DNA from: a plasmid
Direction: 5' to 3' (one strand)
Length of the DNA stretch: 64,000 bases
Assembly: GCF_055900595.2 (NCBI RefSeq)
Contig: NZ_JBVWEU010000003.1
Position numbers and translations under genes: made by a program. Of the stretch, positions 22,012-33,365 are shown piece by piece. How positions within the stretch are numbered: the first letter of the stretch is position 1; every line of letters starts with the position of its first letter. The notes under the pieces were generated by a model. The model was not told the DNA's origin. It did no database searches and saw nothing but the letters and a program-made list of their open reading frames with translations.

Positions 22012-22350
22012 AGTCGCCGCAGGCTCCGCTTTACCCGGCCATGCGGGGCATGGCCTTGTGGGTTTTCAGTTATGTGGCCTCAGCGTCGTGTGCGGGCTGT
22101 GCCGTGCCTCCATCGTAGCCGGGCTTCTGCGGGCGGGTTGCAAGGTAAGGTGAACCGCTGCGGTCACCCGGTCCCTCCTTCCCGTCTGCCGTGATTTTCC
22201 GGTCGTTCACCCGCTCAGATTTCGCGGTCTCACCCTCCAACTCCCGTCAGCCGTGTGCGTCAGGCTGCGGCTTCCCTTGCGCCCTTGCAACCCTGCAGGC
22301 CCGGCAAAGATGGAGGCACGGCACCGCCCGGTGTCGCGGAATATGTGAAC
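22012..22350. repeat. Leading-region structured repeat, family A, copy 1 (upstream of klcA)
   Basis: About 340 bp nearly identical to 28968-29306; GC-rich with multiple hairpins; the ORFs drawn across it are probably spurious. Confidence 0.7.
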
Positions 22351-22366
22351 AACGGAGGAAAACATC

Positions 22367-22792
22367 ATGCAATATGCGAAACCTGTCACTCTGAACGTTG
22401 AAGAGTGCGACCGTCTGTCTTTTCTGCCTTACCTGTTTGGCCTGGATTTTCTGTATGCCGAAGCGTCTGTATACGCGCTGGCGAAAAAAATGATGCCGGA
22501 ATATGAAGGCGGATTCTGGCACTTCATTCGCCTGCCGGACGGTGGCGGTTACATGATGCCGGATGGCGACCGTTTCCACATGGTGAACGGTGCAAACTGG
22601 TTTGACCGTACCGTGAGTGCTGATGCCGCAGGCATCATCCTTACCTCCCTTGTGATTAACCGCCAGTTGTGGCTGTACCACGACAGCGGGGATGCAGGGT
22701 TGACACACCTGTACAGGATGCGTGATGCGCAGTTGTGGAGCCACATCGAATTTCACCCCGAATGCAACGCGATTTACGCGGCACTTGACTGA
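22367..22792 (+). CDS. klcA: KlcA/ArdB-family anti-restriction protein
   Basis: 141 aa; LSFLPYLFG…GGFWHF…DGGGYMMPD…SADAAGII follows the KlcA/ArdB pattern. Confidence 0.8.
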
Positions 22793-22838
22793 TTAACGGA
22801 CGGGGCGGCAATGCCGCCCCTGTAAAGGAGACGAGAAC

Positions 22839-23261
22839 ATGTACTGTACTGTTAAAGAAATCATCCGCGATGTACTGGATACAGACGTGCCGGACAGTGA
22901 ATGCGTTTTTGCCGTGGTGCTGACCCGTGGGGATGTGCGTCACATAGCCCGGGACTGGAACCTGTCAGACGATGAGCTGGAAACCGTCATGCAGCGACTG
23001 GACGATGCCTTTGAGCATGGTGCGGATGTCAGCGTTGTTCACGACGTTGTTCGTGAACTGATGGAAGAAAAGCGCGCCAGCCGTCATGTGACAGTCCCGG
23101 CGGTGATGCTGGAAAAAGTGATGGCGCTGGCAGGCAGTGAAATGAAGCGCCTGTATGCCGTCGGGAGTGAGAACGGGGGCGACGGTGACGCATTCGTCAG
23201 GGAGGAACGCGAAGCAATGGACGTTGTGTTACAGGCGCTGGACGGGGAGACGATGTCATGA
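22839..23261 (+). CDS. Hypothetical acidic protein (leading region)
   Basis: 140-aa ORF preceded by AAAGGAGA Shine-Dalgarno-like sequence. Confidence 0.45.
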   Translation: MYCTVKEIIRDVLDTDVPDSECVFAVVLTRGDVRHIARDWNLSDDELETVMQRLDDAFEHGADVSVVHDVVRELMEEKRASRHVTVPAVMLEKVMALAGSEMKRLYAVGSENGGDGDAFVREEREAMDVVLQALDGETMS

Positions 23262-23449
23262 ATATCAGCACAGAAACTCGCGAAATTCTGCGTAATTACA
23301 GGGCCGTGATTAATGCGCGGCGTCGTGAAATGGGGCAGAAACCGCTCACCACCGCGCAGATTGTTGATGAAATCTGCGATTTTGTGGCGAATCAACAGGC
23401 GGTTTTCCTGGGCGGTCACTACATCTTACAGGGCAGCAGAAACAGGTGA
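23258..23449 (+). CDS. Hypothetical small protein
   Basis: 63-aa ORF overlapping the upstream stop (ATGA). Confidence 0.3.
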   Translation: MNISTETREILRNYRAVINARRREMGQKPLTTAQIVDEICDFVANQQAVFLGGHYILQGSRNR

Positions 23450-23652
23450 TACAGGGGCAGGCGGTGGAGGGCGCCTGTCAGCCCGCGCGAAAACCCCTGG
23501 CAGGCTGGCGCCTGCCGGAAACGCGGGGTGCAGCGCCTGCGGCGCTGCCGGCCCGGCTTTCCGGTCAGAAGGTAGTGTATGGCTGTATGCCAGGAACAGG
23601 TGTGATGTTCCGTGACACTGTCACCGTTTCTGGCTGTTTTTTGTTGCGCCCA

Positions 23653-24150
23653 CTTCGGCTCCCGGCTGCCTGACGGCATCCGGTCGTCAGGCCCGACTCC
23701 GACAGGCAGCTGCTGGCGCACCCGCCAGTCTCCGCCGAACCCGCTGGCGCGGTTTCGGGCTGTCGCTACGGTCCGATGCGTGAAAACCCGGGCTTGCAGC
23801 GACCGTTCCGGTCGCGCCGCCCCTGTCGCGCCGTGACCTGCGCTCCCTGCACACCTGACGGTGTGTGAGGAAACTGCGCCTGATGGCGCAGCAGTCCTCC
23901 CTCCTGCCGCCACCCCTGCGGCCTGTTTCCCGCTGTGGACTTTCCGGGGGGCAGACGTAACCCCCTCCCGTTCCATCTGTCCAGGGTGAGATGCACCGGC
24001 CACAAAATTTTTAGCCATGAACCCGGCAAAAAATTTTGCGTCCGCCCCCGGACAGCTGCCCCGTGAGGCGGTAAACGGGCCCCCATCGGAAAGGTCCACT
24101 GCGGGGAGAAACCCCTGTGAAGTGGACGGCAGGAGGAGCTTTCGCTCCTC
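23653..24150. repeat. Leading-region structured repeat, family B, copy 1 (upstream of ssb; single-strand-promoter-like)
   Basis: About 500 bp shared with 30005-30512 and, in part, 33030-33365; contains hairpins CACACCTGACGGTGTG and CTGCGCCTGATGGCGCAG. Confidence 0.65.
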
Positions 24151-24219
24151 TGAAGGGGCACATGAACGTCCCGTCGCCGGTATCCGGTTTATCTCACATC
24201 TTTCAGTCAGGAGGTTCTT

Positions 24220-24747
24220 ATGAGTGCACGTGGTATCAACAAGGTCATCCTCGTCGGGCGTCTGGGCAATGATCCGGAAGTCCGTTACATCCCCAACGGG
24301 GGTGCAGTGGCAAACCTGCAGGTGGCTACGTCAGAAAGCTGGCGCGACAAACAGACGGGGGAGATGCGGGAGCAGACGGAATGGCACCGCGTGGTGCTGT
24401 TCGGCAAGCTCGCGGAAGTGGCAGGTGAATATCTGCGCAAGGGCGCGCAGGTCTACATCGAGGGGCAACTCCGTACCCGTAGCTGGGAAGATAACGGTAT
24501 CACCCGTTACGTCACTGAAATTCTTGTTAAGACCACGGGCACCATGCAGATGCTGGGGAGTGCACCACAGCAGAACGCTCAGGCGCAACCGAAGCCTCAG
24601 CAGAATGGGCAGCCACAGAGTGCTGACGCGACGAAAAAAGGTGGCGCGAAAACGAAAGGCCGTGGACGTAAGGCCGCGCAGCCCGAGTCTCAGCCGCAAC
24701 CGCCGGAGGGGGAGGATTACGGGTTTTCAGACGATATCCCGTTCTGA
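24220..24747 (+). CDS. ssb: Plasmid single-stranded DNA-binding protein
   Basis: OB-fold N-terminus ([23 protein letters not shown]…), Gln/Pro-rich linker and acidic tail DDIPF. Confidence 0.95.
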
Positions 24748-24798
24748 CTGGCCTGACTGTGATAACCGCCCCGCCCTGCGCGGGGCATCACCGGAGAT

Positions 24799-32330: not shown

Positions 32331-32342
32331 GTAAACATCACA

Positions 32343-32368
32343 GCCCGGCAAAATGCCGGGCTTTTTTG
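32343..32368 (+). terminator. Rho-independent terminator after the Rpn gene
   Basis: GCCCGGCAAAATGCCGGGC hairpin followed by TTTTTT. Confidence 0.6.
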
Positions 32369-32394
32369 TCAGCAGGAGCAGAGCAAACAGCATG

Positions 32395-32550
32395 ACGATT
32401 GCAGAACGTCTTATTCAAAAAGGCGCTCTTGAAGTGGCGCGGGAAATAGCCTGCCGGCTTCGGGATATGGGCTGGACGCCGGAACGGATTCAGGAGGCAA
32501 CCGGACTTTCCGGTGAAGAACTGAAAAAACTGTTTCCTGATGAGCTGTAG
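32395..32550 (+). CDS. Free-standing small protein resembling the Rpn C-terminal tail (RpnS-like)
   Basis: MTIAERLIQKGALEVAREIACRLRDMGWTPERIQEATGLSGEELKKLF parallels the last ~55 aa of the adjacent Rpn (MTLAERLKQEG…ICQITGLSEAELKKIAH). Confidence 0.45.
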   Translation, partial: TIAERLIQKGALEVAREIACRLRDMGWTPERIQEATGLSGEELKKLFPDEL

Positions 32551-32580
32551 CCTGGCATTCTGCCAGGCTGTGAATCACGC

Positions 32581-32832
32581 TCACACATCCTCTGCCGTTT
32601 CCCCCAGTTCATTTTCCAGTCGCCTGATGATATCTGCCTTACGCATCCCCTGCATGTGAGGCAGCAGGTCACGGACTGAAAGAGCCTGGGTGGTCCTCCA
32701 GACGGTGACGTCCACCTGTTCCGCATTTTCCCAGGCGTGCCATGTTCTCTGCGTCACGCCAAATTCTCTGGCCGCTTTTTCGCGTGACCAGAGCATGCTT
32801 TTTCGCCAGATTCGCAGTTCCCAGCCGGTCAT
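32581..32832 (-). CDS. Putative small HTH DNA-binding regulator
   Basis: 83 aa; KAAREFGVTQRTWHAWE is HTH-like; divergent from the downstream operator-like palindromes. Confidence 0.4.
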   Translation of the reverse strand: MTGWELRIWRKSMLWSREKAAREFGVTQRTWHAWENAEQVDVTVWRTTQALSVRDLLPHMQGMRKADIIRRLENELGETAEDV

Positions 32833-32844
32833 AAAACACCTTTG

Positions 32845-32935
32845 AAAAAGTGAAAAAACTTCACTTTATTTTATCATCATAATCATCAAATCAGCGCGAT
32901 AAATAAGTGTGAAAAAGTGAAGAAATTTCACTTTT
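32845..32935. promoter_or_regulatory. Two operator-like palindromes AAAGTGAA-N5-TTCACTTT
   Basis: Two copies about 65 bp apart in an AT-rich spacer between the HTH gene and the family-B repeat. Confidence 0.4.
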
Positions 32936-33029
32936 TTTTGATTGTGGGTGTCGTGCTGTTTTCTCTGTTTTCACCTGTGCGGGAGTGGTGCGCCAGTGAC
33001 CACAGCATGCCGTTGTTGTGCCGTCGGTT

Positions 33030-33365
33030 TTCTCCGGTCGCGCCGGATGCGGCGCTCCCTGCACACCTGACGGTGTGTAAGGCCACTGCGCCTGATGGCG
33101 CAGCTGTCTCTGCCTGTCTGCCGCCGCACTGCGGCCCGTTCTCCGCAGACGGACTTTCCGGGGGTACATACACGACCACATCCCGTTTCAGTCGTCCAGG
33201 GGAGAGATGTACCAGCCACAAAACTTTTTGCCGCAGGCGTCAAAAACTTTTGCGTCTGCCCCCGGACAACTGCCCCGTGACGTGGTGAGCGTCCCCCGTC
33301 GGAAAGGTCCACTGCGGGGAAATCCCCGAAGACCCGGACGGCAGAAGGAGCTTCGCTCCTCCGGG
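33030..33365. repeat. Leading-region structured repeat, family B, copy 3 (partial)
   Basis: Shares the distal ~330 bp of copies 1 and 2; precedes the ORF at 33410. Confidence 0.6.

Follow-up and report, generated by a model that had tools for sequence, protein, structure and literature searches.

The stretch analysed here, called the window, is 64,000 nucleotides of plasmid DNA (NCBI RefSeq assembly GCF_055900595.2, contig NZ_JBVWEU010000003.1). Positions 22,012-33,365 of the window (11.4 kb) match thousands of enterobacterial conjugative plasmids, best of all an IncK2/Z plasmid (IncI-complex, MOBP, MPF_I) at 98% identity, and are the leading region of an IncI-complex conjugative plasmid. Two families of long repeats, A with two copies and B with three, stand in this region immediately ahead of leading genes. 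The five repeats are very probably single-stranded DNA (ssDNA) promoters of the conjugative leading region. Both families are real and both have already been described, so that the finding itself is not new.

Leading region and transferred strand

The genes run in the order methylase, klcA, ssb, parB-like, psiB, psiA, ardA, two small open reading frames (ORFs), an Rpn-family gene, a DUF4942 gene, mobA/nikA and relaxase. Those downstream of the elements were confirmed as a KlcA/ArdB-family gene (klcA, ATG at 22367, Pfam PF03230), ssb (start 24220), ardA (ATG at 29323, PF07275), a DUF4942 gene (ORF start 33410) and an M.EcoGIX-like methylase gene (start 19778). Pfam named klcA, ardA and the ORF at 33410 and had no name for the ORF at 30555; NCBIfam named none of these four. 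Strong Shine-Dalgarno sites precede all genes downstream of the elements. A promoter scan of the plus strand ahead of klcA, ssb, ardA and the ORF at 30555 found no sigma-70-like duplex promoter. A clean terminator-like hairpin (21958-21976) closes the preceding operon just before the first Family A copy. A coarse sliding-window fold scan of the whole leading region placed the strongest signals on the intergenic elements and on a stretch 5' of the methylase gene. An Rfam search of 19000-36000 at a permissive E-value returned a single match, at chance level. We know of no Rfam family that covers these DNA elements.

The direction of transfer is given by the origin of transfer (oriT). The features at this end of the leading region are as follows.

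34830-34823, minus strand: oriT nick-region motif CATCCTG/T (slash, nick), found in the sequence, with NikA-type inverted repeats adjoining and mobA/nikA just downstream
34900-35247: MobA/NikA, profile match
35259-37979: relaxase gene, annotation

The motif is of the IncP/IncI type, with the last leading gene on one side and nikA on the other; the minus-strand sequence at this place is GGAATGTC...GACATTCCCACATCCTG/TCCCG. Because the nick motif sits on the minus strand, this is the strand that is transferred. Its 5' end, at the nick (34823/34824), goes into the recipient first and lower coordinates follow, and this strand is the template of every plus-strand leading gene. By the nick position everything below 34823 is leading region. 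As a check on the placement, the ColIb-P9 ssi at 1459-1787 of AJ238399, counted from the nick of the window, falls at 33364-33036, which is the third copy of Family B. The octamer YATCCTGY occurs 20 times in the window (mean 8.2 in shuffled sequences, none of 100 reaching 20), and only the copy at 34823-34830 has an oriT context; the excess may reflect codon usage alone.

Family B repeats

The nomenclature used below is that of the plasmid pESBL. RNA sequencing of pESBL transconjugants (ED-TA) showed six strongly induced operons, with induction of up to about 500-fold (Wen et al., NAR 2025, PMC12672017). A large hairpin precedes each of the six, and the hairpins form three classes: class 1 is ssi1-3, class 2 consists of the hairpins 5' of klcA and ardA, which are alike only to each other, and class 3 is a unique hairpin 5' of M.EcoGIX. 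Transcription starts were mapped by 5' RACE for all six hairpins (PMC12672017).

Three copies of Family B were located, each with a ColIb-P9 counterpart.

23823-24153, minus strand: copy B1, ColIb-P9 ssi3, 5' of the ssb operon, 99.1% identity over 331 nt
30176-30503, minus strand: copy B2, ColIb-P9 ssi2 homologue, 5' of the ORF at 30555, 89.1%
33037-33363, minus strand: copy B3, ColIb-P9 ssi1, 5' of the DUF4942 gene at 33410, 99.1%

The references are AJ238399 11381-11711 (ssi3), 4353-4678 (ssi2) and 1459-1787 (ssi1), taken from Supplementary file 4 of Samuel et al. 2024. A preliminary description of this DNA, made from its letters alone, had placed three such repeats ahead of ssb and of the ORFs at 30555 and 33410 and had compared them to Frpo/ssi elements; the alignments between copies (80-87%) and the identities to ColIb-P9 bear out both statements. 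The B1 repeat (23653-24150) and the B2 repeat (30006-30501) are 87% identical over 499 bp, again too much for chance. The B3 repeat (33034-33386) has only the gene-proximal ~350 bp in common with them, at 80-86%. Copies B3, B2 and B1 lie 1.5, 4.3 and 10.7 kb from the nick, and the three are 93-99% identical to the three class 1 sites of pESBL.

The palindrome CACACCTGACGGTGTG is present in all three copies (23850-23865, 30203-30218 and 33062-33077), as is CTGCGCCTGATGGCGCAG (23874-23891, 30227-30244 and 33086-33103). Beyond the palindromes each copy forms a long hairpin.

23913-24158: B1 main hairpin, with an AT-rich apex near 24020 and the conserved unpaired bulge GTGCATCTCA near 23987-23996
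30252-30488: B2 main hairpin, with the bulge near 30340-30350
33117-33345: B3 main hairpin, with the bulge near 33203-33213

Folded as ssDNA of the transferred strand and compared with dinucleotide shuffles, B1 reaches -121 kcal/mol (z = -8.4), B2 -127.8 kcal/mol (z = -9.2) and B3 -110.8 kcal/mol (z = -8.0). With the two Family A copies described below, all five elements are stable on the transferred strand, with z between -4.2 and -9.2, as the preliminary description had expected of such promoters. The assignment of the strand itself comes from the nick motif and the gene orientation, not from folding energy. The plan common to class 1 is a long imperfect hairpin whose apex is AT-rich and whose 3' arm has, by the apex, a conserved unpaired bulge of 8-10 nt. 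The bulge sequences are GTACATCTCT and GTGCATCTCA in the IncI type and TGCATTTCA in F, and a conserved CCCTGGAC / GTCCGGGG stem follows. By these identities Family B is assigned to the class 1 (Frpo-type) ssDNA promoters, known since 1997-1999. The ColIb-P9 elements ssi1-3 are reportedly the subject of work by Bates et al. in 1999 and Nasim et al. in 2004, and F Frpo1 (ssiD) and Frpo2 are said to have been treated by Masai and Arai in 1997 and Couturier et al. in 2023.

ORFs annotated as hypothetical proteins lie over class 1 hairpins on either strand in related sequences (L001 19823-20350, minus strand; L004 8468-8839; L002 9808-10164). They are probably artefacts of GC-rich repeats.

The elements could be thought of mainly as single-strand initiation (ssi) signals, which supply RNA primers from which the complementary strand is made in the recipient, expression being secondary. 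Frpo was reportedly first isolated as ssiD, a signal for priming, with transcripts that serve as primers of DNA synthesis in vitro (Masai and Arai 1997, as summarised in later papers), and early conversion events that are sensitive to rifampicin occur near class 1 promoters in vivo (bioRxiv 10.64898/2026.01.09.698686). However, priming is compatible with a promoter role, as one transcript can serve both. In F, entry-specific transcription has been shown for Frpo1 and Frpo2, and deletion of either abolishes early protein production. The six operons downstream of the pESBL hairpins are induced up to about 500-fold (PMC12672017), and each element of the window has a strong ribosome-binding site and an anti-defence or establishment gene close by, a constant short distance away. 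A mainly priming function is therefore considered very improbable, and the promoter reading is preferred.

Family A repeats

Family A consists of two copies, each with an internal inverted repeat.

22007-22359, minus strand: copy A1, putative class 2 (ssp2-type) ssDNA promoter unit 5' of klcA
28963-29315, minus strand: copy A2, putative class 2 ssDNA promoter unit 5' of ardA
22093-22124 / 22299-22330: A1 inverted-repeat arms
29050-29081 / 29256-29287: A2 inverted-repeat arms
22093-22330, minus strand: A1 main hairpin, with 53-nt arms 83% complementary and covariation among homologues
29050-29287, minus strand: A2 main hairpin

The two copies are 95.2% identical over 354 bp, which is no chance match, and stop 7 nt short of the ATG of klcA and of ardA respectively, in agreement with the placement given to them in the preliminary description. 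That description had also ascribed conserved inverted repeats to each family. The palindromes it quoted are confined to Family B; Family A contains neither of them but has an inverted repeat of its own, with 32-nt arms that are 91% complementary and 174 nt apart. As ssDNA of the transferred strand, A1 folds to -91.7 kcal/mol (z = -5.2) and A2 to -91.5 kcal/mol (z = -4.2) against dinucleotide shuffles. On the plus strand a small terminator-like hairpin followed by a T-rich tail lies inside A1 (placed at 22037-22055 or at 22042-22060), and another terminator-like hairpin inside A2 (28999-29017).

The A1 copy is 89% identical to the pESBL hairpin 5' of klcA and 90% to the F element, and A2 is 88.5% identical to the pESBL hairpin 5' of ardA; over the family the two class 2 hairpins of pESBL give values of 87-89%, and the F sequence that lies 5' of yfgB, the klcA homologue, gives 89-90%. 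A homologue had been listed earlier as candidate Frpo' 4 (Samuel et al. 2024, Supplementary file 4). The copy in F, named ssp2, is treated as the promoter of the ArdB/KlcA homologue (bioRxiv 10.64898/2026.01.09.698686). On this resemblance Family A is identified as a class 2 ssDNA promoter, a candidate since 2024 and characterised in 2025-2026. It is distinct, as first supposed, since neither alignment nor nhmmer (E above 1 against class 1 sequences) gave significant similarity to Family B, but it can no longer be called less characterised, having since been defined as class 2 (PMC12672017).

A common origin of classes 1 and 2 was tried and rejected: Salmonella Frpo* sequences (CCCTTGC...GCTACAG) look intermediate by eye, but a class 2 nhmmer profile gave E above 1 in class 1 sequences with a 4-kb database.

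Class 2 copies resemble their partner in the same plasmid (95.2% in the window; 95.8% in pESBL, L004 7013-7364 and 13958-14310) more closely than they do the positional counterpart in the other plasmid, the identity between window and pESBL being only 87-89%. This suggests gene conversion between the two copies.

The Family A hairpin is supported by covariation. Homologues were gathered by a pattern scan for GCCCGGCTANNNTNNNGNCACGGC with one genome per species, and class-2-type hairpins were recovered from Pantoea, Erwinia, Klebsiella, Yersinia pestis, Buttiauxella, Rahnella, Salmonella arizonae and other genera. By size they sort into three groups, the arms being about 145, 198 or 205 nt apart. 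In the resulting alignment of 35 class-2-type sequences from Enterobacterales, compensatory double changes occur at 12 of 33 consensus pairs, for example A-T in 17 sequences and G-C in 14, or C-G in 24 and T-A in 11. A distant search of a plasmid collection matched at least 5000 records, and among the 60 matches listed all were ~90% identical or more.

Covariation bears on the idea that the repeats are passive, that is, recombination scars, boundaries of mobile modules, or terminators or insulators, without a promoter function of their own. The three Family B repeats had been described as R1-R3 in an IncI-type plasmid in 2013; the 9.7-kb R1-R3 block was speculated to be a mobile element, and one plasmid had lost the block by recombination between R1 and R3 (PMC3817090). 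The plus-strand terminator-like hairpins of Family A (22042-22060 and 28999-29017) could be read in the same sense. Against this, the long stems are kept across genera by compensatory base changes, and conserved copies are present in F, IncI and many other Enterobacterales plasmids, in every case upstream of leading genes that point the same way. Promoter activity has also been shown directly for near-identical copies (PMC12672017). A purely passive role is scarcely credible, and the repeats are treated below as promoters.

Two observations on the distribution of the family may be added. In Erwinia sp. OLFS4 (L051 2342-2593) the class-2-type hairpin has an almost perfectly paired basal stem with the GCCCGGCTACAGTAGCGGCACGGC motif on both arms, and could read as a promoter on either strand. 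Family A elements of 90-99% identity also appear in contigs filed as Streptomyces morookaense (L008, L009) and in metagenome-assembled genomes of Oscillibacter, Oscillospiraceae and Collinsella (L011, L013, L026, L054). These Gram-positive occurrences are most likely contamination or mis-binning rather than real hosts.

Promoter core of Family A

The gene-proximal arm of A1 (22283-22330) is contiguous with the klcA template on the transferred strand, and therefore the distal arm (22093-22145) must serve as the non-template strand. The putative promoter boxes lie on that arm.

22138-22143, minus strand: A1 putative -35, TTGCAA, distal arm, aligned with the conserved CCCTTGCAT block of the 35 homologues
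22112-22117, minus strand: A1 putative -10, TACGAT, distal arm
29095-29100, minus strand: A2 putative -35, TTGCAT
29069-29074, minus strand: A2 putative -10, TACGAT

Read from loop to base, the two boxes are separated by 20 nt on the distal arm in both copies. The -10 of A1 faces ATCTTT (22306-22311) and is mismatched at two positions, T.T at -12 and C.T at -10. Transcription would start near 22318 on the plus strand, ~49 nt ahead of the klcA ATG, and near 29275, ~48 nt ahead of the ardA ATG. In duplex form the same site reads TTGCAA-N15-AAAGAT, which is a poor promoter, and this gives a simple reason for an activity specific to single strands. The preliminary description had proposed to look for -35/-10 geometry in the stems. 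Such geometry is formed in the Family A stem, as TTGCA(A/T)-N20-TACGAT, in a variant allele; in Family B no hexamers could be placed with confidence.

The block CCCTTGCAT-N15-TAnnnT is conserved in the 35-sequence alignment, and promoter positions -11 to -9 are unpaired in almost every class-2-type variant. The TA and the T of the -10 were fixed by the search pattern, so that their invariance in the genome-scan sequences is uninformative; they are also invariant in the independently obtained pESBL, F and Samuel et al. candidate sequences. The class 2 allele of the window is found at 99% identity or above in at least 739 sequenced plasmids.

It might be argued that the main role of Family A is structural, as a roadblock at which synthesis of the complementary strand stalls, and that any promoter activity is incidental. 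In F, complementary-strand synthesis stalls at ssp2, where the stem's end is the site to which the stalled 3' end maps. The stall is relieved by UvrD, and deletion of ssp2 speeds conversion of the downstream loci and roughly halves the production of PsiB (bioRxiv 10.64898/2026.01.09.698686). The two copies of the window, before klcA and ardA, would bracket the ssb-psiB-psiA block. Yet the same preprint regards ssp2 as the promoter of the ArdB/KlcA homologue and holds that both roles matter, and 5' RACE found starts at both class 2 sites of pESBL (PMC12672017). Roadblock activity has been shown for the F allele only, and the conserved TTGCAT...TAnnnT with its -10 bubble would have no obvious purpose in a pure roadblock. 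That Family A acts chiefly as a roadblock is highly improbable; a promoter that probably also stalls synthesis is the reading carried forward.

Proposed mechanism

The following sequence of events would account for the five repeats as ssDNA promoters. Entry of the minus strand into the recipient would begin with its 5' end at the nick (34823/34824), and therefore each leading gene would arrive before its upstream element. Once inside, the element would fold back as a long imperfect hairpin. Its paired stem mimics duplex promoter DNA, and host sigma-70 RNA polymerase could therefore bind it and transcribe the adjacent genes, back toward oriT, off a template that is still single-stranded. Complementary-strand synthesis would then remove the hairpin and expression would end. 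In Family A the distal arm would provide the non-template TTGCA(A/T)-N20-TACGAT, of which the -10 lies on mismatches and would therefore be partly pre-melted. By analogy with F, the Family A hairpin probably also stalls complementary-strand synthesis, and such a class 2 stall would keep the downstream leading genes single-stranded and expressed for longer.

To this scheme the present analysis contributes sequence identity, strand polarity, hairpins, covariation and promoter-like geometry. Entry-specific transcription, mapped starts and the roadblock come from the literature on elements that are 87-99% identical, and the class 2 allele of the window is expected to behave like the tested one.

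Several points weigh against the scheme. First, entry-specific activity of this plasmid is argued by analogy with homologues. Second, consensus scans of both arms in both orientations of Family B and of F Frpo1/2 gave no convincing -35/-10 hexamers on the transferred strand; the only conserved class 1 features are CCCTGGAC(A/G) and the unpaired 8-10-nt bulge. Third, the class 2 allele of the window departs from the tested pESBL/F allele precisely in the promoter core. The pESBL and F elements have a -10 TAAGAT over a 3-nt bubble, unpaired from -11 to -9, whereas the window has TACGAT with two single mismatches (-12 and -10), and the non-template/template spacers are 20/15 nt in the window but 15/19 nt in pESBL and F, the longer spacer thus being on the opposite arm. 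Fourth, a linear spacer of 15 or 20 nt is outside the sigma-70 optimum, and the argument from geometry hinges on the bulges; in both alleles the spacer amounts to ~15 paired positions plus bulges, and the helical geometry may be similar. Fifth, in a 360-nt segment of A1 the complementary strand folds about equally well, and counts of G.T against A.C pairs (32 vs 25) do not discriminate between the strands in Family A homologues. When cores of 190-255 nt are folded, all 34 of the 34 sequences favour the transferred strand over the complement, by a mean of 7.85 kcal/mol, which is weak evidence, the sequences being related.

Sequences flanking Family B

The B1 and B2 repeats extend beyond the class 1 element itself.

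23653-23822 (B1) and 30006-30175 (B2), minus strand: extension common to B1 and B2 only, upstream of the promoter in the sense of transcription

A block of ~70 nt (23779-23851 and 30132-30204) is 93-94% identical to the flank of both F Frpo1 and Frpo2. On the transferred strand it reads GGGAGCGCAGGTCACGGCGCGACAGGGGCGGCGCGACCGGAACGGTCGCTGCAAGCC and includes a stem-loop of 7 bp with a GAA triloop; only the first ~25 nt of the block are present in B3, without the stem-loop. When F is compared with the IncI type, the block keeps 93-94% identity, and the promoter hairpins have diverged to about 68%. No function for the block, and no account of the class 2 allele of the window, was found in the literature examined. 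We entertain, as a rather unlikely proposal, that the class 2 allele differs from the tested one in promoter or roadblock strength and that the ~70-nt block is a separate single-strand signal, for priming or protein loading. If that were true, the strength of the class 2 allele would tune how long the leading region stays single-stranded.

Further repeats were seen in the same spacers. A hairpin CTGGCAGGC...GCCTGCC(G/T)G occurs at 23488-23527 and 29866-29905 (more widely 23473-23549 and 29852-29928), with 82-83% identity between the copies. It lies at the far upstream end of the spacers before ssb and the ORF at 30555, and therefore the repeated hairpin-rich unit spans nearly the whole ~700-bp spacer, beyond the 328-nt ssi.

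Ahead of B3, between it and a minus-strand gene for a helix-turn-helix regulator, are two copies (32845-32867 and 32914-32936) of the 23-nt palindrome-containing sequence AAAAAGTGAAAAAACTTCACTTT, overlapping a site that resembles a duplex promoter (32850-32877). They have the look of operators, and in that case conventional regulation would exist beside ssi1. An ORF of 65 codons is enclosed by a 25-nt inverted repeat (32338-32362 and 32549-32573). Either arm by itself forms a terminator-like hairpin, AGCCCGGCAAAATGCCGGGCT, which in the first arm is followed by a T-rich tail on both strands.

Class 3 hairpin

A sixth element of the same system lies outside 22012-33365.

19496-19719, minus strand: class 3 (ssp3-type) hairpin 5' of the M.EcoGIX-like methylase gene

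Its 30-nt arms (19496-19525 and 19690-19719) are 83% complementary, it folds to -99.4 kcal/mol (z = -6.9), and it is 97.7% identical to the pESBL hairpin 5' of M.EcoGIX. It overlaps an ORF (about 19395-19706) that is annotated as hypothetical in related plasmids and is probably not a real gene.

Comparison with known systems

Elements of this kind govern what happens in the first minutes of a resistance plasmid's life in a new cell, and the genes switched on before the duplex stage include those for anti-restriction proteins, an SOS inhibitor, SSB and a methylase. The principle is already established for F, ColIb-P9 and pESBL, and the window is another instance. Its modest additions are the coordinates of all six elements in one IncI-complex plasmid, covariation evidence for conservation of the class 2 hairpin in many Enterobacterales, and a class 2 allele with a promoter core unlike the tested one.

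The gene order of the leading region is the same in pESBL-EA11 as in the window, and in large part the same in F, whose leading region is syntenic. The comparison with ColIb-P9 and F that the preliminary description had proposed gave near-identity of Family B to ColIb-P9 and 89-90% identity of Family A to F, but only a patchy likeness of Family B to F. The pESBL class 1 elements have the same order relative to oriT and the same downstream genes as in the window, and the small palindromes and long imperfect hairpin of ssi1-3 are those of Family B. Copy B2 is a diverged ssi2 allele (89% to ColIb-P9, 93% to pESBL), and the B1 and B2 repeat unit is ~170 bp longer than the published 328-nt ssi. F Frpo1 (ssiD) and Frpo2 have the same position and orientation in the syntenic leading region. 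However, they are two where the window has three, their identity to the Family B hairpin is 66-68% and limited to the upper half, and the lower half of the F stem is unrelated to the IncI type.

For class 2 the likeness to pESBL and to F ssp2 is closer. The same 32-nt basal stem and internal loop sequence stand before the same genes as in Family A, with the promoter motif again on the distal arm and the -10 again imperfectly paired. The class 3 hairpin corresponds to the ssp3 element of pESBL and F.

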